Virus record (IMG/VR): IMGVR_UViG_3300028048_000079 | Coordinates: 32,001-96,000 of that record | DNA length: 64,000 nt | Reading direction: 5' to 3' (one strand) | Source: a virus | Lineage: Duplodnaviria > Caudoviricetes | In this document: positions 6,607 to 58,513 of the stretch, piece by piece | How the letters are laid out: every line of letters begins with the position of its first letter | Position numbering within the stretch: position 1 is the first letter of the stretch | Position numbers and translations under genes: made by a program | The notes under the pieces: model-generated | Told to the model about the DNA's origin: nothing | Databases searched by the model: none | What the model saw: only the letters and a program-made list of their open reading frames with translations

Positions 6607-6640
6607 TTTTGTTATAAGAAAAATAATTAGTACCTTTGCA
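6607..6640 (+). promoter_or_regulatory. Bacteroidota sigma-A promoter of clpX (representative of about 35 in the window)
   Basis: TTTG, about 19 nt, then TACCTTTG. The same architecture occurs at 15927, 22642, 24843, 25150, 26194, 35095 and at about 25 sites in 42-63 kb. Confidence 0.85.
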
Positions 6641-6668: not shown

Positions 6669-7826
6669 ATGGCAAAAAAAACAACAAATGAAGAGGTAAC
6701 TCAAGAAGAGATTAAGGAAATAAAGGCACAAATGCGTGACATTATGAATAAGGTCACGCCAAAATACCTTTATGATTATCTTAATCAGTATGTAATTGGC
6801 CAAGAAGAAGCCAAGAAGTATATATCCGTTGCTGTTTATAACCATTATAAACGTTTTATGGATAACATCTATGGTTATACACAATATATTGAGGATAATC
6901 CATATCAAGATGTTGAAATTGAAAAGACTAATTGTATTGTACTTGGAAATTCCGGAAGTGGGAAAACTTATATGCTAAGACTTCTCGCAAAGCATCTGAA
7001 TATACCGTTTTATATACAGGATTCCTGTAGCCTCTCAAGTGCTGGATATGTTGGTGATGATGTCGAGAATGCGGTTCTTGGTGCATTGCGAAGCTGCAAC
7101 TTCAATGTGCAAGCCACACAGCATGCAATTATTGTCTTCGATGAGTTTGATAAACTTTCAAGAAAGAGCGAAAATCCGTCAATAACACGTGATGTCGGTG
7201 GTGAAGGTGTTCAGCAATCACTTTTGAAACTTGTTGAAGGTACAATTGTCAATGTACCGCCCAATGGTGGACGTAAGCATCCGGAACAGGAATGCATTCC
7301 TGTAGATACAAGAAATATTCTTTTCTTCGGCATTGGTGCATTTGATGGTTTGGAAAAGATTATTGAGAAACGCAAGAACAAAAAAACAATTGGCTTTAAT
7401 TCAATTGCAAAGGACAATGAAGTTGAAGAAGACTTGCTTTCAGATGTTACTTCGGATGATTTAAAGAAATATGGCTTGATTCCTGAAATTATAGGCCGTT
7501 TTCCGTTGATTACGCATGTTAAGCCTTTAACAGAAGAACAACTTTATCAGATACTTGTTGAGCCTAAAAATTCAATTATTAAACAGTTTCAGAAACTGTT
7601 TTGGATTGATAATGTTGAACTAACATTTGATGATGATGCTTTGCATATTGTTGCTAAGGAAGCATATGAAATGAAAACCGGTGCTAGAAGCTTGCGTGGT
7701 GTTCTTGATAAATTGCTTGCTGATATTATGTTTGACTACGGTGGTTACAATGAGGAAAAGGTGAAACTTAACATCACAGCTGATATGGTTTCTGCTTACC
7801 AGTCAAAAGTTAAACAAGCTGCTTAA
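6669..7826 (+). CDS. clpX: ClpX AAA+ unfoldase lacking the N-terminal zinc-binding domain
   Basis: YVIGQEEAKK, Walker A GNSGSGKT, GYVG pore loop, FDEFDK, RDVGGEGVQQSLLK, RKH loop, IGF loop, GARSLR. Confidence 0.95.
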   Translation: MAKKTTNEEVTQEEIKEIKAQMRDIMNKVTPKYLYDYLNQYVIGQEEAKKYISVAVYNHYKRFMDNIYGYTQYIEDNPYQDVEIEKTNCIVLGNSGSGKTYMLRLLAKHLNIPFYIQDSCSLSSAGYVGDDVENAVLGALRSCNFNVQATQHAIIVFDEFDKLSRKSENPSITRDVGGEGVQQSLLKLVEGTIVNVPPNGGRKHPEQECIPVDTRNILFFGIGAFDGLEKIIEKRKNKKTIGFNSIAKDNEVEEDLLSDVTSDDLKKYGLIPEIIGRFPLITHVKPLTEEQLYQILVEPKNSIIKQFQKLFWIDNVELTFDDDALHIVAKEAYEMKTGARSLRGVLDKLLADIMFDYGGYNEEKVKLNITADMVSAYQSKVKQAA

Positions 7827-13415: not shown

Positions 13416-15842
13416 TTATTTTTCCAAATTTCCAAGACCAATATTTTCTACCTCAAATACAAATCCTTCACTTGGCTGTTTGTCTATTATATAATCTGTT
13501 ATTTTATCCTCAAATTCATGTTGTATTGCATGTAATACAGGTCTTGCACCGTAATCAGATTTTTCTTTTACCTTATCAAATATATAGTTAATTGTGGCAT
13601 CTGCATCGAAACTTTCTCCTAAAACATAATTTAATGAATTAACTTTCTTTCGGAATTTACCTATTTCCAGTTTGATTATTTCTTTGATGTTTTCTTCAGT
13701 AAGTTTATTGAAATAAATGATACTGTCTATACGATTAATAAACTCAGGTCTGAATTTATTCTTCATTGCCTTGTTAATTGCATCTCTATTGTTAGCATCA
13801 TTATTTTGTACAAATCCGATACCCTTTCCTCTATTACTGATTTCTTTTGCACCAACATTTGATGTCATGATGACAATAACATTGGAAAAATCTACAATAT
13901 TTCCCATGTTATCTGTGAGTCTACCTTCATCAAACAATTGTAAGAATACATTATGCACATCATCGTCTGCTTTTTCCATTTCATCAAGAAGTAATACACA
14001 GTGATTGTTCTTCTTGATAGCCTCAGTCAGAATACCACCCTTATCATAGCCAATATAGCCGGGAGATGAACCTGTTAATTTACTGACAGTCATCTTGTCT
14101 GAATATTCACTCATATCAAGTCTTACCATAGATTTTTCATCACCAAATACTTCCTCGGCAAGTTTCTTTGCCAAATAAGTTTTGCCACTTCCTGTAGTTC
14201 CGCTAAAAAACAGTACAGCAGGACGGTTATTATTGGCAATACCAATTCTTTGTCTTTTTACTACACGGCAAACCTCATCTACGGCTTCCTCTTGGCCGAT
14301 AACCAAAGATTTCAACTTTGAATTAAGCATTTTCAACTTGTCACGTTCATTCTCATTGAGTTTCGTAACAGGTATGTTAGTTTTAACTGAAATCAATTCC
14401 CTAACATCATCCTCATCAACCACAATAGGTTTATTGTTAAGCATTAGGTCTTTTTCAATCAATTGAATTTGTGACTTTAATTCAATTTCCCTTGATTTAA
14501 GTTTATCATATACATTTGTATATTGTTTTTCACTTGAACTATTAAGCCCTTTAAGTTTTTCTGTTACATCATGCAAGTCCTTCTTGTATTCAGTAATACG
14601 TGGGTCTTCAGCCTTTGAAATGCCTTTCTTTGCACCGAGTTCATCAATAATATCAATAGCATAATCAGGAAGATTTGCCGTTTTTACATATTGTTTGGTA
14701 AGTTTCACACAGGTTTCAATTGCAGCGTCGGTAAATTCAACATTGTGATACTTCTCATATTTAACCTTGCACAACTTCATAATCTCAATGATTTCCTCAT
14801 CAGTCTTCTCTTTCAGTTCAACCTTTTGGAAACGTCTTTTCATGGACGGTCTTCCAAGTATATAGGTATTATATGACTTCTTATCCATTGTGCATATGAA
14901 TTTGATGTTACGTTCCATCAATATCATATCCAACATATTTTCGGTATTAACCTCGCCAAATTTACTGCTTTCAGATAAAATGGACTGAAGGTCATCCACG
15001 AAGAAAATATATCCGTCTTTTTTCACTGCATCAGCAACTATTGCATTGAATTTTGCCTCAAAATTTCCCCTTAATGCGGCACCGGAAACCAATGCCATAA
15101 AATCCATCTTCATCAGTTTCTTATTTTTGAAAGCATCGGGCACTTTTTCGTTAATAATCAGATTGGCAATATGTGCAACTGTTGCTGTTTTTCCAATTCC
15201 GGAATCCCCAACAACCACAACATTGTTACGGTCACGTTTTGATAATATATTAAAAATAGTATTGATTGCTTCATCATTGCCGATAACCTCATCAATTTTA
15301 CCATTTGCTGCCAAATCATTCATATTAATAAGTAAGTCCTCTACTGGCCCCTTTAATATTTGTGGCTGTTGCATACGATTTTTCTTTGATTTACCTATTT
15401 TGGCATCTGATGGAAGTACCGCATCCAAATTAGTAAGCAACTGTTCATATGTTATACCAATTTGTTTGAACTGTTTGGCGATGTTTTCATTTAACTTCAA
15501 AATAGACATCAGCACATGGGCTGATGCAAGTCTTGTAACATTAAACTCTTTGGCTGCACTTTCAATAGCCTTATCATATATTGAGTCATGCTCCACCTTA
15601 TCGATGGTTTTTGGTGCATCTGTCTTTGAAAGAACCTGTACAAACCATTCCTGCATAGATGTGAGCGTACTTGTCAATGTTGCCTTTGAAAGCAATTGAT
15701 AAGCAGATGAATCTTCATTTTCAAGTACAGAGAGAAAAAAATACTCAATAACAATCTTATTTGTTGGATATTTCTTTACTAAGTTATTTTCAATATATTG
15801 AAATATGTTAACCGCTTCGTTTGTAAAATTGGCTTTAAACAT
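13416..15842 (-). CDS. ClpC/ClpA-type two-ring Clp ATPase
   Basis: Two Walker A motifs (GDSGIGKT, GTTGSGKT), RLDMSEYS, PGYIGY, LLLDEMEK, GIGF ClpP-docking loop, middle coiled coil. Confidence 0.9.
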   Translation of the reverse strand: MFKANFTNEAVNIFQYIENNLVKKYPTNKIVIEYFFLSVLENEDSSAYQLLSKATLTSTLTSMQEWFVQVLSKTDAPKTIDKVEHDSIYDKAIESAAKEFNVTRLASAHVLMSILKLNENIAKQFKQIGITYEQLLTNLDAVLPSDAKIGKSKKNRMQQPQILKGPVEDLLINMNDLAANGKIDEVIGNDEAINTIFNILSKRDRNNVVVVGDSGIGKTATVAHIANLIINEKVPDAFKNKKLMKMDFMALVSGAALRGNFEAKFNAIVADAVKKDGYIFFVDDLQSILSESSKFGEVNTENMLDMILMERNIKFICTMDKKSYNTYILGRPSMKRRFQKVELKEKTDEEIIEIMKLCKVKYEKYHNVEFTDAAIETCVKLTKQYVKTANLPDYAIDIIDELGAKKGISKAEDPRITEYKKDLHDVTEKLKGLNSSSEKQYTNVYDKLKSREIELKSQIQLIEKDLMLNNKPIVVDEDDVRELISVKTNIPVTKLNENERDKLKMLNSKLKSLVIGQEEAVDEVCRVVKRQRIGIANNNRPAVLFFSGTTGSGKTYLAKKLAEEVFGDEKSMVRLDMSEYSDKMTVSKLTGSSPGYIGYDKGGILTEAIKKNNHCVLLLDEMEKADDDVHNVFLQLFDEGRLTDNMGNIVDFSNVIVIMTSNVGAKEISNRGKGIGFVQNNDANNRDAINKAMKNKFRPEFINRIDSIIYFNKLTEENIKEIIKLEIGKFRKKVNSLNYVLGESFDADATINYIFDKVKEKSDYGARPVLHAIQHEFEDKITDYIIDKQPSEGFVFEVENIGLGNLEK

Positions 15843-15959
15843 CAGTAATTTTCAAAATTTATTATGAATATAATAGTCTTTTACATTTTTTTCAATGATA
15901 TATTTGGCTATTTCATGCAAAAATAGTATCTTTGCACCGTAAAAATAAAACAAAAACAT

Positions 15960-40680: not shown

Positions 40681-40890
40681 AAAAAATTTTTCTGGAATTT
40701 TTTTTTGAAATAACCTTTAATAGAATAAACCCCACCCCCCCCCTTATTTTTTCCCGGATTTTTTTCAAAGATTTGCAGAGCAAACCGTGTGCCACCGTCA
40801 GCCGGAAACATAGGGGGTGGCGGAGACGTGGGATACGTAGGTAGGGGGTACATAGGGAGGGGGTGCAGCAGTCCTACCACATCCCCTCCG
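40681..40890. other. C-run/G-run element; putative genome terminus or packaging-associated site
   Basis: A/T tracts, CCCCACCCCCCCCC at 40730-40743, five G-runs at 40813-40863; abrupt change in composition and gene class. Confidence 0.45.
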
Positions 40891-40894
40891 TGTA

Positions 40895-40910
40895 TGTTCC
40901 ACGTGAAACC
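40895..40910. promoter_or_regulatory. parS-like site
   Basis: TGTTCCACGTGAAACC, 15/16 match to the canonical TGTTNCACGTGAAACA. Confidence 0.7.
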
Positions 40911-42014
40911 TTATGCAGCCATCAGCAGTTGGTAAGCATCCTCGACCTTCTTCTGTGCGCTACCGAACATCATAGCGTTGAACTTGTCTTCCTGAGATTT
41001 CCAATTCTTCTCATTCTGAAGGTAGGTAGTCACACCATTCAGCAGCCACACCTTTGTGCCACGATTGTACTCCTGTCCTACTCCATTCTCGATGCTGTCC
41101 GTCAGGGCTGCCATAATGTTCTTTGTTCGTGTGCTGATTTCCTCAACGTGGTCAGCCTTGAAGTCAGCCTTCTTCCAAAGTTCAAAGGCGGGAGCAGTCA
41201 GACACAACTTGCCTACGAAGTCACGTGCATATTCAGCAGTGATGGTCTCCTCCTTGAGTCCAAGCATACGCTCCATGAACTTGTCGCTAAATTTAACTGA
41301 CTTGCTGAAAAGTTCAGCGGCAATTTTGCGGTTGCGCTCGATAGTCCAATCAAGACGCTCGTCGACCTTAGAAGTGTGCTTGAACACCACTTTGTTGGCG
41401 CAGCCCTTAATGGCCATGTTCAGTGTGTTCTGACAAATCACACGAATCGGTGTGAAGAAAGCCATGACACCGCCACTGCCATCATGTGAGTTAGTGAACA
41501 CCACATAGTTCTTGATTGCGTCGTTAGGGTTAAGATACGAATCCTCACCAAGTGTAGCGGTGATGAACATACGTTCGCCATAGCCAAGTGCGCCATAGGA
41601 TTCGATAACGGGTTCGCTACCACTTGCCTCCTTAATGAAGTCCATGAAGTCGAAAGCCTTGCTGTTCTGCACGATTCCGTAGCCCTTACCTACGATACCA
41701 AGTGTGTCGTTATTGTCAGTGCGCAGCGTAGCCTTATGGGTGTTAATGATGTCGGCCACTGACGGATTCCAATCGAAAGCCTCACCTTTGCGGATAGCCT
41801 CAACCATTTCAGAAGGTACACGCATCAGTGGCATTTCGCCCACCTCATAGTTAATGCGGTTTTCACTTGTTACGTCTGCCATAACGTCGTGGATGGTTGC
41901 ACCCTTCTCGCAGATTGTACCGAACTGCTGCCATGCTACACGCTGTGCACCCGTCTCTGTGTTAGGGTTAACGTTCACGTTACTCTGTCCGTTGATATTC
42001 AAAACTTGTGTCAT
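40911..42014 (-). CDS. DUF932/DUF945-family phage/plasmid protein
   Basis: AWQQFG, RTDNNDTLGIVGKGYGIVQN, NSHDGSG, TPIRVICQNTL, KHT; C-terminus LMAA. Confidence 0.85.
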   Translation of the reverse strand: MTQVLNINGQSNVNVNPNTETGAQRVAWQQFGTICEKGATIHDVMADVTSENRINYEVGEMPLMRVPSEMVEAIRKGEAFDWNPSVADIINTHKATLRTDNNDTLGIVGKGYGIVQNSKAFDFMDFIKEASGSEPVIESYGALGYGERMFITATLGEDSYLNPNDAIKNYVVFTNSHDGSGGVMAFFTPIRVICQNTLNMAIKGCANKVVFKHTSKVDERLDWTIERNRKIAAELFSKSVKFSDKFMERMLGLKEETITAEYARDFVGKLCLTAPAFELWKKADFKADHVEEISTRTKNIMAALTDSIENGVGQEYNRGTKVWLLNGVTTYLQNEKNWKSQEDKFNAMMFGSAQKKVEDAYQLLMAA

Positions 42015-42230
42015 AATAAATAATGTTTTAAAGAGTTATTACTATTTGTTTTAATTTCACGATGCAAAGGTAATAAAAAAAATTGATATATGCAAGAAAA
42101 AATGAATTTATTTTTAGTCGTTTTAATTTATTTAACAATTGAACATTTTTTAACGAATTTTTAACAGTCAATTAACATAGAAATTCAAGATTATTTTGTA
42201 CCTTTGCATTGTCATTCAGAAGATGGATGA

Positions 42231-42267
42231 AGGGTAAGGATGACACCTTAGAGTATAATCTCCGACA
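42231..42267 (+). ncRNA. Repeated small-RNA element, copy 1
   Basis: TAAGG-ATGACA-CCTTA-GAGTATAATCTCCGACA after the promoter at 42199. Confidence 0.65.
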
Positions 42268-42377
42268 CATTCATTGATAATATGTTAATTTATGTTTCAA
42301 AATGTAAGTAAAATAAAATCCGTCCTATCCTCTCGGACTGAACGGACTAACAACAATATAAGTCAAAAACTAAAACT

Positions 42378-42908
42378 TCATGCTGCTTCTGCCTTTTTAA
42401 TTCCTTGTTTGTACGGATAGCCACCCGTATAATCTATAACGGCTGTCATGACTTCTTTGTAATACTTCTCCATTTTGTTGGCAAGGTCTTTCATGTCCTT
42501 ATAGCTCTGTTTGCGGAACTTCTTTCCGCCATTGTCGACCAATACATTCTGCATCGACTTCATGGCGAGATACTTGTACTTTGGTGTGGTCTTGTCATAT
42601 GGTGAAAGCCATACAGAGCCACTACAGAACACAGATACCTTCTTGTTATATAAATCTATTTTAAAGTCAATGTATATTGAGTTTTCAGAAATGCCGTTGG
42701 GGTAGTCCTCCTTCTTCAGTGCATCCAATCTCACAAAGATAATATAGGGGCAGAAACCGCCCACTTTGCCCACAGAGACGTTTTCAGCAGTGCTGATGGG
42801 TATCAGATAGTCACGTAGCATTTCTCGTTGCTGTTGCCATTCTGTCACGTTCTTAGGGTCACGCATTGCGTTTTCCTTTGCCATGATGTTGTTAATATCG
42901 TATGCCAT
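42378..42908 (-). CDS. Early hypothetical protein (C-terminus AEAA)
   Basis: Start refined to MAYDIN; own promoter near 42962. Confidence 0.7.
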   Translation of the reverse strand: MAYDINNIMAKENAMRDPKNVTEWQQQREMLRDYLIPISTAENVSVGKVGGFCPYIIFVRLDALKKEDYPNGISENSIYIDFKIDLYNKKVSVFCSGSVWLSPYDKTTPKYKYLAMKSMQNVLVDNGGKKFRKQSYKDMKDLANKMEKYYKEVMTAVIDYTGGYPYKQGIKKAEAA

Positions 42909-43139
42909 AATTTTAATTGAATTTAAATTGTTAATAACTGATGTTCTTTTTAATAACGCTGCAAAGGTACAAAGAAATTCTGATATATGCAAATATTCTG
43001 TGCTAAAGAACGTTAAGCGGCCAATGTTTTTCCAGTTTCTTTACATTTCAGATTATCCATTACCTCTTTTGCGTGGTCATTCATTGACTTGTCACCGAAA
43101 GCAAATTTGGCTTTGCCATTTACAAAATATATCATACCT

Positions 43140-43502
43140 TTAAATCATTGTTATAAGTTCATTAATAAAATACCTCATATCGTCAGCATAATCTTTTAAA
43201 TCGTCCCATGATGTTCTGTATACGTTAAAATCTTCAGGGAAAAACTCAGACATATGCTCATAAGTGGGTTTATCACCATAAATTCGTTGAATTAACTTTT
43301 CTTGAATGGTTGTCGGCTCTCCGTCTAAAATTAAATGATATCCTTTTGGTTCTGTGCCGTAAGCCTTGAAGAACTCTACAGCGTCATGGCTGTTTGATGG
43401 GTCATTAACCAACGCTTTCCATTCCTTTTTGAATTTTTTGGACTTTCCCCAATAATATTCTTTATTGTTACCTTCATTGAGATTTATTGCAATTATTTTC
43501 AT
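43140..43502 (-). CDS. Early hypothetical protein
   Basis: 120 aa ORF. Confidence 0.65.
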   Translation of the reverse strand: MKIIAINLNEGNNKEYYWGKSKKFKKEWKALVNDPSNSHDAVEFFKAYGTEPKGYHLILDGEPTTIQEKLIQRIYGDKPTYEHMSEFFPEDFNVYRTSWDDLKDYADDMRYFINELITMI

Positions 43503-43537
43503 GTTGTTTTATTTTTAGATGTTAATAATTTTTGTTT

Positions 43538-43930
43538 TTATCCGTAGATTTCCTCGCCAAAGACGATGGTTTGCAGTAGGCAGTCAGCATCTAACATATC
43601 GCCTTCTTCTGTCATAATGTTGGCATATTGTCTTGGATAGTGGAACATAAATTTCTTGAAACCCTTTTCGATATCCTTAATGGAAACCTTATATTCCTTT
43701 TCTTCTTCTCTGTCCTCAATCAGCAGATAGCCACCATTGATTAAGACATAAGCCCAAATGTCCTCTCTGCAATCATACATAGTTTTGGCTGTTTCGTACA
43801 ATTCCTTATCGGTGTCTTGATGTGTGCCGAATGATGCCCAATAGTTGCCGTAACTTGCATCTGAAAGCCATGTTGAAAGCCAATCGTGGTTTGTAATAAT
43901 TGCTTTAACTGAATTTATTTTCTTTGCCAT
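43538..43930 (-). CDS. Early hypothetical protein
   Basis: C-terminal DADCLLQTIVFGEEIYG motif. Confidence 0.7.
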   Translation of the reverse strand: MAKKINSVKAIITNHDWLSTWLSDASYGNYWASFGTHQDTDKELYETAKTMYDCREDIWAYVLINGGYLLIEDREEEKEYKVSIKDIEKGFKKFMFHYPRQYANIMTEEGDMLDADCLLQTIVFGEEIYG

Positions 43931-43950
43931 AGTTGTATTGAATTAAATTA

Positions 43951-44031
43951 TATCTCGGAATTATTCCTTGATTTCTGTGTGCAAAGTTAATCATAATTTT
44001 TGAGAAAAACGAAGGAAATACATTTTTTAAC
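43951..44031 (-). repeat. Duplicated promoter + leader cassette (second copy at about 46325-46404)
   Basis: TATCTCGGAATTATTCCTTGATTTCTGTGTGCAAAG and TTTTGAGAAAAACGAAGGAA.TACATTTTTTAAC occur in both copies. Confidence 0.85.
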
Positions 44032-44069
44032 CAAAGATTAACATTTGTTTAGATTTATATAATGGGGTG

Positions 44070-44106
44070 TGTTGGAGACTATACTTTAGAGTTTCACCCC
44101 TACCTC
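44070..44106 (-). ncRNA. Repeated small-RNA element, copy 2
   Basis: TAGGG-GTGAAA-CTCTA-AAGTATAGTCTCCAACA on the minus strand, after the promoter near 44123. Confidence 0.65.
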
Positions 44107-44234
44107 TTTTATTTTTCTACTGCAAAGATAGTAAAAAAAGTTGAGATATGGAAATTATTTTTGTTAATTGTTATTAACTGATTGTTAATAAAACAAAACA
44201 AGGGAAGAGTGGTTTACCCTTCCCTTTTGGCTGA

Positions 44235-44250
44235 TGTTTCACGTGGAACA
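44235..44250. promoter_or_regulatory. parS site
   Basis: TGTTTCACGTGGAACA; the reverse complement TGTTCCACGTGAAACA is a perfect match to the canonical consensus. Confidence 0.8.
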
Positions 44251-44251
44251 T

Positions 44252-44794
44252 TTAGGCTGCATCTGCCATCGGCTCGTCCTCCTTCTCCTTGACGGGAATA
44301 TTAAGGTTCTTACAGAGGGCTTCATAGTTGCCACGTGCTCCACACTGCTTGCCCAATTTCTCGGACTTGTTGAGGTCGTTGATGAACGTCACGAAGTCGT
44401 TGGAAACTCTCTCGTAGTAACGCATCACTAAGCGGATGGTCACGTCTGACATCTTCTTTCCCTCAAGGCCGTTATACTTGTTGTACTCCATGCCCATCAT
44501 GTGAACTTGCTCGACCTTGCAAGCCTTGAACTGCTTGTAGCCCTTCTCGAACTCCGACATCTTGAAAGCACCCTTAGAGACACCTACTTGAAGGATGAAA
44601 TAGAATGGGATGGACTTGTGGCTATCTGCAAAGGCCACGATTTCCTCACAGATACGCTTGTGCAGCAGAGCCTTCTGTCGTTCGTCATAATGCTTTGTAC
44701 CTTCCTTCTTGTACTGCGGAAGATTGTACTTTCCGTTAATCTTGTTAGCGGCTGTGTTGCGGATTGCGGTTTCAACTGAATTTTTCATAATCAA
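44252..44794 (-). CDS. Early hypothetical protein (C-terminus ADAA)
   Basis: 180 aa, GC-richer codon usage, own promoter near 44853. Confidence 0.7.
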   Translation of the reverse strand: MIMKNSVETAIRNTAANKINGKYNLPQYKKEGTKHYDERQKALLHKRICEEIVAFADSHKSIPFYFILQVGVSKGAFKMSEFEKGYKQFKACKVEQVHMMGMEYNKYNGLEGKKMSDVTIRLVMRYYERVSNDFVTFINDLNKSEKLGKQCGARGNYEALCKNLNIPVKEKEDEPMADAA

Positions 44795-44938
44795 ATCTCC
44801 TATTTTTAAATTGTTAAACTTAATGTGAATTACTTGTCTTATTTTGACACTGCAAAGGTAATAAAAATATTTGAGACTACCAAATTTTTAAATACTTTTT
44901 AACTGGAAATACCGTTATTTAACATTCGTTCACTAAAA

Positions 44939-45100
44939 TCAATCGTTATACATCAAAACTTGTTCGATTGCATCACATACATGGTCGTAGCCACTTCCGT
45001 ACTGCTGACCTTCTTCATCAAGGACAACAAAACCTTCAGTCCAATCATGTTGGATTGTGTAACGTCCAATTTTCAGATGATTTTTATTTATTGCTACCAT
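44939..45100 (-). CDS. Small early protein (53 aa)
   Basis: Below the track cut-off: MVAINKNHLKIGRYTIQHDWTEGFVVLDEEG...; promoter near 45148. Confidence 0.6.
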   Translation of the reverse strand: MVAINKNHLKIGRYTIQHDWTEGFVVLDEEGQQYGSGYDHVCDAIEQVLMYND

Positions 45101-45246
45101 ACATTATTAATATTAAAGGGTTATTACTAATTGATTTTTGATAGCGCAAAGGTAATACTTTTTTCTGAAATATCCAAATATTAGATGAATTTTATTTGTT
45201 AAAGAACGTTAAAAATTAAGGGATATTAACAATTTTAATTGGCTTA

Positions 45247-45283
45247 CATTGGAGATTATACTTTAGGATTTTACTCCTACCTT
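45247..45283 (-). ncRNA. Repeated small-RNA element, copy 3
   Basis: TAGGA-GTAAAA-TCCTA-AAGTATAATCTCCAATG after the promoter near 45299. Confidence 0.65.
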
Positions 45284-45579
45284 TTAATTTTGATAGTGCA
45301 AAGTTAAGGAAAAAAACTGAATTATGCAACTTTTTTGTGCTAAATAATATTAAATGAATTGTTAAAAATTGTTTTGTGGGAAAGCACTTCGGTCTCGCTT
45401 CTACGTTAGGCTCTGAACACTTGTACTTTGTGCCTTTTGGCTTAACTCCACTACCCTCCAAAGGTAACTCCCACAAAACTAAAATAGTTCGCAACTTCTT
45501 TCGTCCATAGCGACATGGATTCTTTTCTTAGGCTCTGTTGCTTTTCCTAATAGGTGGGTAGCCACCCCACCACGTATCT

Positions 45580-45930
45580 CTATGCAACCTCCTTGAGGCT
45601 GATGTATCTTTCACTCCATTTCCACTTTATTTGAAATGCTGCATCATGGCAATTTTCACGGTAGGCTTGAAGGTCTGCCTTTGCCTCCTCTTTCGTGGTG
45701 CAAAAACATTCCACGTCCCATCCTTCGCCATAGTTGGACATCACACATGGACAAAGCGTAAACTCTGTCAATTCACCATCCCAATCTTTTGTGAGACGTT
45801 TAGCTGTTTCTTCTGTAATGTCACGCAAACGGCAAGCCTTCTTGCAAGCCTTATAGGTTCTGCCAAAGTTTACTAAGCCGACATACAATCCGCTTTTTAA
45901 CTTGATTTGATATTCTGTCCTATTTGCCAT
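45580..45930 (-). CDS. Early hypothetical protein (C-terminus EVA)
   Basis: NYGEGWDVEC...L.AYREN motif; own promoter. Confidence 0.7.
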   Translation of the reverse strand: MANRTEYQIKLKSGLYVGLVNFGRTYKACKKACRLRDITEETAKRLTKDWDGELTEFTLCPCVMSNYGEGWDVECFCTTKEEAKADLQAYRENCHDAAFQIKWKWSERYISLKEVA

Positions 45931-46042
45931 AACTTATTACTATTATAAATTGATTTTTAATTTGACACTGCAAAGGTAATACTTTTTTCTGAAATATGCA
46001 AATTATTTTAGTTAAAAAGCGTTTCAGAATTGTTAAAAGATG

Positions 46043-46303
46043 TTAACCAACTCTCATTACATATACACCTTCGTAGTCACCACCAAAATCGATATCAGCA
46101 ACTTTTTCACCTATTTTGAGGTCTGTGAATGGTCTGCCATCGGTTGCAACTTCTAAACCTAACTTCATAAAATCCTCTGCTGAACGTACAACATGAACTA
46201 ACGGCTTGTCACCATCTACAGCCCATGATTCGCATTCTGATGTATTAATAACAAGGTATGCACCAAAATTTTTGTTGTACTCTTTTATTTCTAAACGTTC
46301 CAT
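46043..46303 (-). CDS. Early hypothetical protein
   Basis: 86 aa ORF with its own promoter. Confidence 0.65.
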   Translation of the reverse strand: MERLEIKEYNKNFGAYLVINTSECESWAVDGDKPLVHVVRSAEDFMKLGLEVATDGRPFTDLKIGEKVADIDFGGDYEGVYVMRVG

Positions 46304-46522
46304 ATTAAAAAACTAATTTATATTATCTCGGAATTATTCCTTGATTTCTGTGTGCAAAGGTACAAAGAAATTTTGAGAAAAACGAAGGAATTACATTTTT
46401 TAACATGACTTTAACGTTTAATATAGGAAATGTTAAATCTTAGTTAAAAAAGTGTTAAAGTGCCGGAAATATTTGGTAATTTAAAAAATTATTCGTACCT
46501 TTGTATCGTCAATGAAAGACAA

Positions 46523-46559
46523 GGGGCAAAGGTGAAACTTTGAAGTATAATCTCCGACA
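46523..46559 (+). ncRNA. Repeated small-RNA element, copy 4
   Basis: CAAAG-GTGAAA-CTTTG-AAGTATAATCTCCGACA after the promoter at 46496. Confidence 0.65.
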
Positions 46560-46665
46560 TGGGTAATTATTTTTTCTTAAAAAACGTTAAAAGCAACCCC
46601 ACCTACTTTCACAAGCGGATGGGGTAAAACTGAAATGCCTAAAATTTCCAAAGGTGAGGAGGCTT

Positions 46666-46962
46666 TTATGCAGCCTCCTTCTTCACATAGCTGGTAAGGT
46701 CGTAAGTACCACGCGGTATGTGTGTGTCCGCACCAACTTCTGTAAACTTTTTTCCACGTCTTTCAAGTTCCCTACGTGTATAGGCCTGCTGCTTGCTTGT
46801 GGTGCAAGAATACTTGCAGACGTTAAACAGAATGCCATCAGCCGTTTTTTGGGCGATGCAAGTCGCATAAGAATACAACTTCGTGCCGTTAGTCCGCATT
46901 GAACCATTCTGCTTTTCCTGACCATTGATAAAAGCGTTAATCAAATCTACATTACTAATCAT
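46666..46962 (-). CDS. Early hypothetical protein (C-terminus KEAA)
   Basis: LYSYATCIA...YSCTTSKQQ motif. Confidence 0.7.
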   Translation of the reverse strand: MISNVDLINAFINGQEKQNGSMRTNGTKLYSYATCIAQKTADGILFNVCKYSCTTSKQQAYTRRELERRGKKFTEVGADTHIPRGTYDLTSYVKKEAA

Positions 46963-47217
46963 ATCTGTATCTCCTATAAATTAAAGATGTTAAACTTGTG
47001 GGGTGTCATTCCCTTAACTTTTGACGATGCAAAGGTAATACATTTTTTTGAATTATGCAAATTTTTGGGTAATTATTTTCGTCCAATTTTGTTTAATTAA
47101 CACTTAAGTGTATCATTTCTTAACAAATCATAAAAAAACGCTAAAAATTTGGTGGTTTCAAATATTATACTTACCTTTGCATTCGATTTCAAATAACAAT
47201 TCAAAATAATAAGGTAT

Positions 47218-47391
47218 ATGAATAATAAATCAAAATTTCTCTTAGTCCTAATAACGCTAATTTATTGTGCCATATTGTATTATGGTGTATTCTGTTTATC
47301 CAATCCCTACAAAAGCAGTCTGTTGATTTCTGTAGGGTTTATTGCTGTTATTTTAGCCTATGGCTACGTATTTGAGAAGTATAACAAATAA
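47218..47391 (+). CDS. Small two-TM membrane protein (57 aa)
   Basis: Below the track cut-off; follows the promoter at 47172. Confidence 0.55.
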   Translation: MNNKSKFLLVLITLIYCAILYYGVFCLSNPYKSSLLISVGFIAVILAYGYVFEKYNK

Positions 47392-47405
47392 AAAATTTTT
47401 ACGTT

Positions 47406-48095
47406 ATGAGTTGTCCTAATTTCCACAAAATCAATGCACATAATTATTATGTCGTAGGCGATACAACAACCGCCTATGATGATGAACTTGAGGAGGAGGT
47501 CGAGGTAACGAAGGATTCCTTTGACTACGATTGCGATATAGACTTTGCACAAGAAAGCGCAAAGGAAAAAGGTTTTGACCCCGTGGACTACAATGACCGA
47601 AATTCCTATCAGAATAGTATGTGTGCATCTTGTCTTTCATCTAAATCTAAATGGTATGCTTTCGGCAAAAAGGGTGCTAACATGGATTTCAACAACTTTG
47701 AATTCAGTCAAGAAATTTATGTTCATAGCGGCCATTATTCCGGAATGAACTACGATTGGGATATTTGTATATCTGATAATTTCGGTAATCACTTCCGGAT
47801 TTCTGAATACGATTCTATAGAGTCTCTTGTGGATGATATTGCCGACACATGGCAAGAAAATGCTACAGATTCATGGTATGACACATGGAATGCCGGATTG
47901 GCTAAAATCCAAAGGAAAAACCTTGTGAAGTGGCTGAATGGTATGATAGAAAAACTATCTGATGAAGTCGACGATGTGTGCCGATATATCTGTGAGGAGG
48001 TTTACGTATGTGGCGGTATCTTCTCAAATGGTGAAGCTGTCTATTACAAAGAAGATAGTCTTAAAGGTAAGGTGAACAACGTGGAGGCTGCATAA
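47406..48095 (+). CDS. Early acidic hypothetical protein (C-terminus VEAA)
   Basis: 229 aa; SGHYSG and FSNGEAVY motifs. Confidence 0.7.
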   Translation: MSCPNFHKINAHNYYVVGDTTTAYDDELEEEVEVTKDSFDYDCDIDFAQESAKEKGFDPVDYNDRNSYQNSMCASCLSSKSKWYAFGKKGANMDFNNFEFSQEIYVHSGHYSGMNYDWDICISDNFGNHFRISEYDSIESLVDDIADTWQENATDSWYDTWNAGLAKIQRKNLVKWLNGMIEKLSDEVDDVCRYICEEVYVCGGIFSNGEAVYYKEDSLKGKVNNVEAA

Positions 48096-48116
48096 GTCTC
48101 CACACCGCTACCCTAT

Positions 48117-48132
48117 GTACTCGAATGGGTAC
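48117..48132 (+). repeat. GTACTC-AAAT-GAGTAC hairpin family (also at 48484, 49258, 57632)
   Basis: Four intergenic copies, all on the + strand. Confidence 0.8.
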
Positions 48133-48166
48133 AGGTTAACACAAATATCAATTAAAATAAAAAATT

Positions 48167-48472
48167 ATGTTACGTTATAGCGGAGAAAAATTTCAGATGG
48201 TTGATAGGAAAGGAATAGTCCATGAAGTCCTACAAGTAACCAAAGGTAAGGCTAAGAAAGCCTATGAGGAAGGCAAACATATATGGATTCACCCTTGTAA
48301 TATGCGTGTATCAAATGTATGGCAGTCACCAATGCCTTTCAACAAGAAAGCGATTGAAGATAATGCCTTCCTAATGAATAGTACGTTTGATGATATTGTT
48401 AATGATTTCCGGTATTACAACTGCGACAATGAACGTGGAAAATATCCTATCTTCTTCGTGGCGGCAGCGTGA
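48167..48472 (+). CDS. Early hypothetical protein (C-terminus VAAA)
   Basis: FRYYNCDNERGKYPIFF motif. Confidence 0.7.
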   Translation: MLRYSGEKFQMVDRKGIVHEVLQVTKGKAKKAYEEGKHIWIHPCNMRVSNVWQSPMPFNKKAIEDNAFLMNSTFDDIVNDFRYYNCDNERGKYPIFFVAAA

Positions 48473-48604
48473 GCAGACCCCATGTACTCAAATGAGTAAC
48501 AAATAACATCAATTAACAATTCATTAAGGTTCTTTAAGCAAAAAAGTTTGGTAGATTAAAAAATTATTCGTAACTTTGCAGTCGAAATTAAAACAATAAA
48601 GAAT

Positions 48605-48880
48605 ATGAGAGAAGACTATAAGTATGGCCAACGGTACGGCAGACGTTTTTTTGTTGGAATCGACATCGCTCTTGTGGCAATGGTAGTATATGCTTTCAAT
48701 GCCGAGTGCTATTCATCTGAAGAAGTAAATACATTCAGTGAGGACACTTGTAAGTCTCTTGCAAAGCACGATAGTAAAAACGTCCATATCTATGAGTATG
48801 AGACAAAAAATATCGACAACATTTGTAATGCCATTAACAGAGAAGGCAAAATCGTGTTTGTAAGAGCATTTGAAAAGTAA
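48605..48880 (+). CDS. Early hypothetical protein
   Basis: 91 aa ORF after the promoter at 48571. Confidence 0.55.
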   Translation: MREDYKYGQRYGRRFFVGIDIALVAMVVYAFNAECYSSEEVNTFSEDTCKSLAKHDSKNVHIYEYETKNIDNICNAINREGKIVFVRAFEK

Positions 48881-49174
48881 GGCATAAAAGTCTTGATGGC
48901 GCAGTGCGCAATGCTTAATAAGACTTCGGTTGACCATCATCGTCTGTGAGACATACGTTCATCGTTTATAGCAGACACTTTTAAAACTAAGGACAATAGG
49001 CTGAAGGAGTTTTACCGATAGTGGGTTTTCAAGTAGGCCACAAGCACCATAAGAAAGTGCAGACAACCGGAAACGGAATGTTAGATTAGTCCTGACCCAA
49101 ACGGAATTGACCGGTAGGACATGGTGAGAGTTAAGTCCATGTGGCTTGGTGAGTGGAATAGGAACTCATAAATT

Positions 49175-49249
49175 GCTCCCATAGTCGAGTGGATAAGACG
49201 AGAACCTCCTAAGTTCTAAGCACCGGTCCGATTCCGGTTGGGAGTACCA
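49175..49249 (+). tRNA. tRNA-Arg (anticodon CCU)
   Basis: Acceptor stem GCTCCCA/TGGGAGT, anticodon arm AGAAC-CTCCTAA-GTTCT, T arm ACCGG-TCCGATT-CCGGT, encoded CCA. Confidence 0.9.
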
Positions 49250-49322
49250 CACCCTATGTACTCAAATGAGTATGGTATACGAAGTAGAGTTAATATCAAT
49301 TTAAATTAAACAATTAGAAAGT

Positions 49323-49649
49323 ATGACACAGATTGTAACAAAAGTAGGCACGTTTGACGTGATGGACAAGAACGGAAACGTATTAGTGTGTAAGAACGGA
49401 AAGGCATTGGCCACATTCACCGGTATCAATGCTTGGGATAAGGACGCTATCATCATGGCCATTGAAAGTCATGGAGAGGAACTTAATAAGGCCGCAGCAA
49501 AAGTCGGTACCGGAAACATTACATCTGAGAATGTCATTCCAACACTGAACTATATCTGTGACATGTTGAGCGACACCATCGAGGACAACAAGACAAAAGG
49601 CTTCGTAACAAGTAGGCTGAAACAAGTTATTAACAAGTTGGCAGCATAA
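49323..49649 (+). CDS. Early hypothetical protein (C-terminus KLAA)
   Basis: 108 aa ORF. Confidence 0.7.
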   Translation: MTQIVTKVGTFDVMDKNGNVLVCKNGKALATFTGINAWDKDAIIMAIESHGEELNKAAAKVGTGNITSENVIPTLNYICDMLSDTIEDNKTKGFVTSRLKQVINKLAA

Positions 49650-53297: not shown

Positions 53298-53494
53298 AAA
53301 AAAAAATAGAAAACTCAAAATCAGATTGTAGTTTTATCAGGAACTTTCACTTACAATTTGTAATTTTTGCAGGAGACACAAGTTTCAAAGTGTAATTTTT
53401 GCAGGAGGATTTTTTAACAATCTGTTAATGTTTATTAACATAAAATATTTGCATATTTCAAACTTTTTTTGTACCTTTGCATTATCAAAATTGA

Positions 53495-53531
53495 TAGGTA
53501 AGGGTAAAGCCTTAAAGTATAGTCTCCAACA
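53495..53531 (+). ncRNA. Repeated small-RNA element, copy 5
   Basis: TAAGG-GTAAAG-CCTTA-AAGTATAGTCTCCAACA after the promoter at 53472. Confidence 0.65.
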
Positions 53532-58187: not shown

Positions 58188-58264
58188 TTAGTATTAATTA
58201 AGTTAAAAGATTCGTTTATATCAGATTTTTGTTGTACCTTTGCATTGTCAAACAAAACAAATAT

Positions 58265-58513
58265 ATGGAAAAGATTTATGTTGTGGTTTATGTATGTGTA
58301 ATGACCTTTTGTGGTGACATTTACACGGAGCAGAAAGTAACACGTAACAAGTATGTAGCCCAGAAATATTTCAACAATTACATCGCTGACATTGCCGAGA
58401 CAACCGGTGATAACATGATAGTTGAGGAAATGGGTAAAACCATATTTGACTATGAGGGTGCAAATGGCGGTAATATGTATCACGTTGAAATTTCAGAAGT
58501 ATATGTAGCATAA
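58265..58513 (+). CDS. Early hypothetical protein (C-terminus YVA)
   Basis: Start refined, after the promoter at 58235. Confidence 0.6.
   Translation: MEKIYVVVYVCVMTFCGDIYTEQKVTRNKYVAQKYFNNYIADIAETTGDNMIVEEMGKTIFDYEGANGGNMYHVEISEVYVA

Follow-up and report, generated by a model that had tools for sequence, protein, structure and literature searches.

An uncultured jumbo phage encodes conserved Ala-Ala C-termini on a block of unrelated genes: candidate ssrA-like degrons

Why should a run of neighboring phage genes with no evident kinship end, one after another, in the same two amino acids? The question is raised by positions 40,911-49,649 of a 64,000-nucleotide stretch of viral DNA (the window), taken from bases 32,001-96,000 of one viral record of 124,868 bp (IMGVR_UViG_3300028048_000079; 34% G+C). 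Many genes of this block encode proteins whose last two residues are Ala-Ala (AA). A first interpretation made from the DNA letters and their translations, referred to here as the sequence-only reading, proposed that these endings are hard-coded counterparts of the ssrA tag and that the phage encodes a ClpX unfoldase bearing the same tail. The comparisons presented here indicate that a selected [Ala/Val]-Ala-COOH signal is very probably present. The most economical reader of this signal is a ClpX-type unfoldase feeding ClpP; this assignment is probable, and under it the tagged proteins would be short-lived.

Genes were called with a codon-usage score trained on the long open reading frames (ORFs) of the record. 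Of 15 credible ORFs called in the block, eight have AA at the end and one more has EVA (Table 1; genes are cited below by their first coordinate). The sequence-only reading had counted seven of 14. All of the endings that it listed (LMAA, AEAA, ADAA, KEAA, VEAA, VAAA, and KLAA, plus one VA) are present, and the KTLAA gene at 43013 was not in its list. One of the 15, ORF 45216-45461, probably overlaps a small-RNA unit; its status is doubtful, and it may not be a gene. Elsewhere in the record, AA ends are found at four of 168 genes, one of them ClpX and the other three lying rightwards of the window (Fisher's exact p = 1e-7 for the block against the rest). ClpX is the only such gene to the left of 40.7 kb, as had been stated, and the YVA ending previously reported for the gene at 58265 is also correct. 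Measured against the block's own internal AA dipeptide frequency of 0.8%, eight of 15 corresponds to a binomial p of 1e-13. In a complete 351-kb relative (G007), one of 436 called genes ends in AA, its ClpX (KKAA), and one gene ends in VA, its DUF932 protein.

Related phage contigs were collected through homologues of the DUF932 protein encoded at 40911. These contigs carry orthologues of all eight AA genes and of the EVA gene, and every such orthologue ends in AA. Orthologues of the gene at 42378 end VEAA, AEAA, AKAA, or TLAA and differ in their Ala and stop codons; those of the gene at 43013 (contigs L001, L004, L007, and L008) all end RLAA. The ADAA of the gene at 44252 is represented by AKAA and ALAA on tails of unequal length, and the EVA of the gene at 45580 by IKAA in L008/L009. 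Synonymous changes accompany two preserved endings: KKEAA at 46666 (GCT to GCC in L009) and NKLAA at 49323 (GCA to GCT in L008). The gene at 47406 has orthologues ending NVEAA (L006) and RKVAA (L008), and the VAAA of the gene at 48197 is IPAA in L008. In the L008/L009 lineage, whose DUF932 protein is 60% identical, AA is found at 9-10 of the 13-15 genes of the syntenic block and at 0 of 11 downstream genes. The terminal Ala codons of the eight genes include GCA, GCT, GCC, and GCG, each stop is TAA or TGA, and the base that follows it is not constant; among the orthologues, synonymous changes occur at both Ala codons, and all three stops (TAA, TGA, and TAG) are used. Because Ala codons and stop codons vary, the selection is on the protein.

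Broader families show how sharply this selection is focused. AA ends 98 of 120 DUF932 homologues and VA a further 20; for the 178-residue protein encoded at 44252, the corresponding numbers are 104 and 15, also of 120. Each family has Ala at position -1 in 119 of its 120 members; at position -2, a single Ser is the sole exception to Ala or Val. Entropy is 0.07 bit at -1 and 0.5-0.7 bit at -2, and in the 178-residue family it is 2.1-3.3 bit at positions -3 to -8, with tails of variable length. Only a subset of the wider 229-residue family (from the gene at 47406) has AA or VA. In crAss-like phages, the endings of DUF932 are EAL, VWE, or YAA, and the tail is therefore an add-on rather than part of the fold. 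Taken across genes, the sequences point to an ending added to unrelated folds, with purifying selection confined to the terminal dipeptide and its free carboxylate.

What might read such an ending? For Escherichia coli ClpXP, the terminal Ala-Ala-COO- is the main determinant of recognition, and it is contacted in ClpX by Tyr153/Val154 (pore-1 loop), Thr199/Val202 (pore-2 loop), and Arg228/His230 (RKH loop) (PMC7652416). In an unbiased screen of C-terminal pentapeptides, Ala-Ala occurred in 91% of the top 100 degrons; the tag that performed best ended in LVA, and ClpXP degraded it like YALAA (PMC10862746). The phage families, which allow Ala or Val at -2 and Ala at -1, follow the pattern of LAA and LVA, the strongest known ClpX tags (PMC10862746).

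The phage supplies a ClpX of its own. This protein scores above the cut-offs of two NCBIfam equivalogs (NF003745, 467 bits versus 359; TIGR00382, 453 versus 371). The alignment starts only at profile position 39-48, and the first 60 residues contain no Cys; the protein is thus a ClpX core without the zinc-binding (C4) N-domain. Its loops match those of solved ClpX: AGYVG (pore-1), SITRDVGGEGVQQ (pore-2, ITRDV), GGRKHP (RKH), and TIGFNS (IGF). All six residues that contact ssrA are kept (Tyr-Val in pore 1, Thr/Val in pore 2, and Arg/His in the RKH loop). Its own KVKQAA ending, noted in the sequence-only reading, is confirmed, and an [A/V/I]-A tail is widely conserved: among 120 homologues of 72-96% identity, 50 end in AA, 30 in VA, and 5 in IA, on variable tails. 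Remoter relatives end KVA, KKAA, or ETA, and the tail is kept across relatives sharing 50-96% identity. The ClpC-like ATPase with an IGF loop that had also been described is present (IGF at residues 675-677). Its best PDB sequence matches are ClpC structures, which it matches over its full length (E 8e-129), and it has Walker A motifs at 212 and 548; it falls below the NCBIfam ClpA and ClpB equivalog cut-offs and is best regarded as ClpC-like, not as an assigned orthologue. The peptidase gene clpP, which the sequence-only reading had suggested seeking elsewhere in the genome, was not found in five partial relatives, all of which have a ClpX. A true ClpP (E 1e-58 to 1e-78) accompanies a short ClpX in four of five relatives that are larger and more distant, both complete genomes among them.

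The record is estimated to be about 32% complete (CheckV), and metagenome contigs of 340-400 kb carry homologues of its genes; for these reasons it is considered a fragment of an uncultured jumbo (huge) phage. No close DNA relatives were found among annotated phages. From about 41 kb rightwards, TTTG...TAcCTTTGCA stands ahead of nearly every gene; this is the Bacteroidota housekeeping promoter form (-33 TTTG, -7 TAnnTTTG). The nearest annotated-phage proteins to the DUF932 protein belong to crAss-like Bacteroides phages, and a 66%-identical DUF932 copy lies on a 3.2-kb contig binned with a yak-rumen Paludibacteraceae metagenome-assembled genome (MAG; G011). The host is likely one of the Bacteroidales (rumen or gut). 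In the Paludibacteraceae MAG, the transfer-messenger RNA (tmRNA) tag is GENNYALAA, and clpP adjoins clpX on one contig. About one-sixth of the tails in the 178-residue family (homologues P0241-P0360) have E-N-N six to eight residues before the end (e.g., EENNAIADAA); this recalls the head of GENNYALAA and may be a chance resemblance in a tail rich in E, N, and K. Besides that clpP-clpX pair, the same MAG (contigs C185 and C34) holds two more short ClpX-like genes, whose identity to the phage ClpX is 64% and 52%, and two more clpP genes, which suggests co-binned jumbo-phage contigs.

The ClpX and ClpC-like genes have the same host-type promoter as the tagged genes. Most tagged genes have a promoter of their own, with a hairpin or a gap after the gene. 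The tagged genes are also the richest of the record in G+C and in G+C at third codon positions (GC3), ranking 1, 2, 4, 7, 8, 19, 20, and 22 of 183 (Mann-Whitney p = 4e-5). The DUF932 gene is the GC-richest of all, and the tagged genes are GC-richest in the relatives too. High GC and GC3 would fit either import from GC-richer Bacteroidales elements or host codon adaptation for immediate translation.

The mechanism that we favor would run as follows. Terminal Ala-Ala (Val-Ala in some relatives) would be a gene-encoded, ssrA-like degron of the ClpX C-motif 1 type, which a jumbo-phage lineage would have added independently to about ten immediate-early proteins that are unrelated, strongly promoted, and host-like in codon usage. 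The free [A/V]-Ala C-terminus would be bound in the axial pore of a ClpX hexamer, either that of the host or the N-domain-less enzyme of the phage. ClpX would dock through its IGF loop on ClpP (the host's, or a phage copy as in the complete relatives), and the tagged protein would then be unfolded and degraded. Early proteins would thereby have short, sequence-tunable lifetimes and would be gone once their promoters shut off, and the phage ClpX, with the same tail, would limit its own level, as happens with the C-terminal autodegradation tag of ClpA. That ClpX recognizes the tails, that the proteins are degraded, that they are made early, and that the tails act as a timer are inferences; the timer is a reasonable hypothesis. 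What stands of the degron reading first proposed is the selected, protein-level signal of ClpX type, the host-type promoters, and an N-domain-less ClpX that keeps the contact residues and the IGF loop and is itself tailed. The sequence checks suggested with that reading came out in its favor: AA ends are enriched in the block and retained by homologues, and complete relatives have clpP, although none was found in this record.

Several observations weigh against this mechanism. A terminal AA alone is insufficient in E. coli, where the strongly enriched tags were neutral or positively charged (PMC10862746). About half of the phage tails have Glu or Asp at -3 (AEAA, ADAA, KEAA, and VEAA), and such acidic residues would weaken recognition by E. 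coli ClpX; they could reflect graded lifetimes, another specificity of the Bacteroidales or phage enzyme, or another reader. Accessibility of the ends also differs between the two AlphaFold2 (AF2) models. The 229-residue protein (predicted local distance difference test [pLDDT] 95) has its last 10 residues modeled as a helix with pLDDT of about 80, not as a free tail; the 178-residue protein (pLDDT 89.9) scores below 50 over its last 10 residues, and its tail is predicted to be disordered. Five or six genes of the block have no tail, and about 100 genes with the same promoter type lack it as well. Because so many untagged genes share this promoter class, the tail marks a subset of genes that cluster around the divergent promoters at about 47 kb rather than early genes in general. 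Of the 120 phage ClpX homologues, 35 are without an Ala end and either stop a few residues earlier or end otherwise. Lastly, clpP was not found in this record, which is about 32% complete.

Explanations in which the dipeptide has no present role as a protein signal fare poorly. Two terminal GCN codons might belong to a terminator hairpin, be needed for a parS site or the termination context, or reflect an Ala-rich composition. The GAGGC of the Glu-Ala codons is in fact included in a hairpin at the genes at 46666 and 47406, and two stop codons are abutted by parS-like sites. Those sites, however, fall after the stop, and a nucleotide motif at the stop codon was rejected on the use of all four Ala codons and all three stops and on the varying next base. 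Composition alone was likewise rejected, given the binomial enrichment over the block's own dipeptide rate. A cause at the nucleotide level is essentially excluded by these comparisons, and the probability left to any such artefact is negligible. Paralogy among the tagged proteins was rejected as well, since an all-against-all BLAST gave nothing below E 0.04. It is also very improbable that the tails arrived passively with genes from GC-richer Bacteroidales mobile elements and have no role today. The base composition of the tagged genes and the membership of DUF932, a typical mobile-element family, speak for such an origin, but high GC3 fits host codon adaptation for immediate expression equally well, and the dipeptide is under ongoing purifying selection: it is kept where DUF932 proteins are only 60-63% identical and adjacent tail residues turn over.

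Other explanations accept the signal and assign it differently. Abundant AA-tagged early proteins might act as decoys that occupy host ClpXP and so stabilize labile antitoxins or phage factors, a form of counter-defense in which their own removal would be incidental. Such a role would account for one tag on many strongly promoted genes, and the weak tails with an acidic -3 residue could suit slow, occupying substrates; moreover, ClpXP-dependent loss of an antitoxin sets off some abortive-infection systems (e.g., CmdA, which has a terminal Ala-Ala; bioRxiv 10.1101/2024.02.24.581848). The phage nevertheless adds ClpX, and its relatives add ClpP, so that capacity is raised, not blocked, and the conservation, folding, and lack of kinship of the tagged proteins suggest that each has a separate function; decoy activity is accordingly judged unlikely. 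A similarly low probability is given to a reader other than ClpX, whether the phage ClpC-like unfoldase (perhaps with an adaptor), FtsH, Lon, or a nonproteolytic partner in docking, remodeling, or localization. The phage does encode this second ClpP-docking unfoldase under the same promoter type, and acidic upstream residues are a poor fit to the E. coli ClpX rules (PMC10862746). Yet a terminal Ala preceded only by Ala or Val matches the mapped specificity of ClpX (PMC10862746, PMC7652416), every contact residue is kept in the phage ClpX, and ClpX is itself tailed across its 50-96%-identical relatives. Degradation by ClpX with ClpP remains the preferred reading.

Table 1. Tagged genes and phage unfoldase genes (window coordinates)
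Feature	Coordinates	Strand	Evidence
DUF932 / TIGR03299 phage-plasmid-like protein, 367 aa, ends YQLLMAA	40911-42014	-	Pfam, NCBIfam matches
Protein ending KKAEAA	42378-42992	-	Orthologues 174-184 aa
40-aa protein ending KTLAA, last in three-gene unit	43013-43135	-	Orthologues 40-44 aa
178-aa all-helical protein, predicted disordered acidic tail ending PMADAA	44252-44788	-	120 homologues, AF2 model
116-aa protein ending KEVA	45580-45930	-	Orthologue in L008/L009 ends IKAA
98-aa protein ending KKEAA	46666-46962	-	Orthologue in L009
229-aa alpha/beta protein ending NVEAA	47406-48095	+	Orthologues L006, L008
91-aa protein ending FVAAA	48197-48472	+	Orthologue in L008
108-aa protein ending NKLAA	49323-49649	+	Orthologue in L008
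82-aa protein ending VYVA, host-type promoter at 58235	58265-58513	+	
ClpX without zinc-binding N-domain, ending KVKQAA, host-type promoter at 6631	6669-7826	+	
ClpC-like double-ring AAA+ unfoldase, 808 aa, host-type promoter at 15925	13416-15842	-	

Among the tagged proteins of the block, only the DUF932 protein matched a family in Pfam, PHROGs, and NCBIfam (PF06067, E 1.4e-36, 126.9 bits versus a cut-off of 23; TIGR03299, 119.4 bits versus 110.7). The AF2 models of the 178- and 229-residue proteins gave no significant fold match in the PDB, the ESM Atlas search for functions of the tagged proteins returned nothing, and an IMG/VR search with the 229-residue protein found no match. The gene at 42378 likely starts at ATG 42908 (176 residues), because a promoter lies at about 42969. 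Outside the block, one of the four AA-ending genes encodes a SprT-like metalloprotease domain (PF10263, E 9e-14) and has its own host-type promoter; it lies at 110840-111544 of the genome (L065:8840-9544), which is 78840-79544 in window numbering and thus outside the window.

The noncoding DNA around the block has features of its own. Two parS-like 16-mers, TGTTCCACGTGAAACC and TGTTTCACGTGGAACA, occur at 40895-40910 and 44235-44250, where none is expected by chance; they sit directly or within one base 3' of the stop codons of two AA-tailed genes, and in relatives the motif also follows the DUF932 stop. Units without an ORF but with their own host-type promoter are found at about 42230-42330, 44090-44130, 45250-45300, 46500-46560, and 53480-53520. 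A conserved element of about 35 nucleotides (...GGTAGGRGTRAAAYYCTAAAGTATARTCTCCAA...) follows these units, which look like small RNAs dispersed in the gaps between AA-tailed genes. Directly after the DUF932 gene, positions 40700-40900 are noncoding and unusually rich in G+C, with C- and G-tracts (a G10 run and CCCCCT repeats). The contigs of several relatives break near this stretch, which may be a genome end or a packaging site. Downstream of DUF932, L001, L006, and L008 carry GmrSD-type (DUF262/DUF1524) genes of 23-32% G+C and a DprA/YAcAr-like gene; the phage of the window has other genes there.

Among described systems, the phage tails come close to the ssrA tag and C-motif 1, with which they share Ala-Ala or Val-Ala at a free C-terminus, on a short tail that may often be flexible. 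The tag of the candidate host group itself ends YALAA, which the DUF932 tail Y-x-L-L-x-A-A resembles, and strict conservation is limited to the last two residues, in line with the mapped specificity of ClpX (PMC7652416, PMC10862746). In contrast to the ssrA tag, the phage tails are encoded in the genes and not added by trans-translation, many are acidic at -3, and no part for an SspB-type adaptor is evident. Natural proteins marked for ClpXP by a terminal AA or VA include the antitoxins CmdA and Mycobacterium tuberculosis HigA1 of toxin-antitoxin-chaperone systems, both proven substrates in which a change to DD abolishes the effect (bioRxiv 10.1101/2024.02.24.581848). Those are single regulators of cellular defense, whereas here a block of phage early proteins is involved. 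Autodegradation of ClpA, which is prevented by deletion of its last nine residues (PMC7568338), is similarly a case of an unfoldase with a C-terminal degradation signal for its own protease; the enzyme and the tag sequence are different, and for the phage ClpX self-degradation is only a presumption.

The integration-dependent immunity of mycobacteriophages (Broussard et al. 2013) also depends on hard-coded ssrA-like tags. As described in PMC9635641, the Int and Rep proteins carry these tags at their C-termini, and their ClpXP-dependent instability sets a developmental decision. In those phages the tagged proteins are two regulators of a temperate switch, and integration removes the tag; here there are about ten unrelated early proteins of a jumbo phage that brings its own ClpX. 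No link to integration was seen, and neither an integrase nor a repressor is among the annotations of the tagged proteins (Pfam, PHROGs, and NCBIfam), although no search aimed at either was made. The degron type and single tagged phage regulators are therefore already known. Literature searches on phage-encoded ClpX and on Ala-Ala tails of phage early proteins found no description of these tails, and no paper was found on convergent tagging of an unrelated early-protein block together with a phage-borne set of N-domain-less ClpX, ClpP, and ClpC-like proteins.

On a wider and more tentative view, a clade of huge Bacteroidales phages might possess a tag-directed proteolysis of its own (N-domain-less ClpX, ClpP, and a ClpC-like unfoldase), with graded Ala-Ala tails that erase the early proteome, and finally the unfoldase, on schedule; this would amount to a posttranslational early-to-late switch, for which phage biology offers no described counterpart. 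The ClpX variant would then read ssrA-type tails and not adaptor-dependent host substrates. The timing of phage genes is explained almost entirely by control of transcription. If the degron reading is true, protein lifetime would form a second layer of programming, with the strength of each tail as a readable and tunable parameter. The Ala-Ala end would provide a simple sequence mark for short-lived host-takeover or anti-defense proteins of uncultured phages and a rationale for the ClpX, ClpP, and ClpC genes of many jumbo phages. It would also offer natural sets of degrons for the Bacteroidota, whose rules for ClpXP substrates are essentially unmapped.

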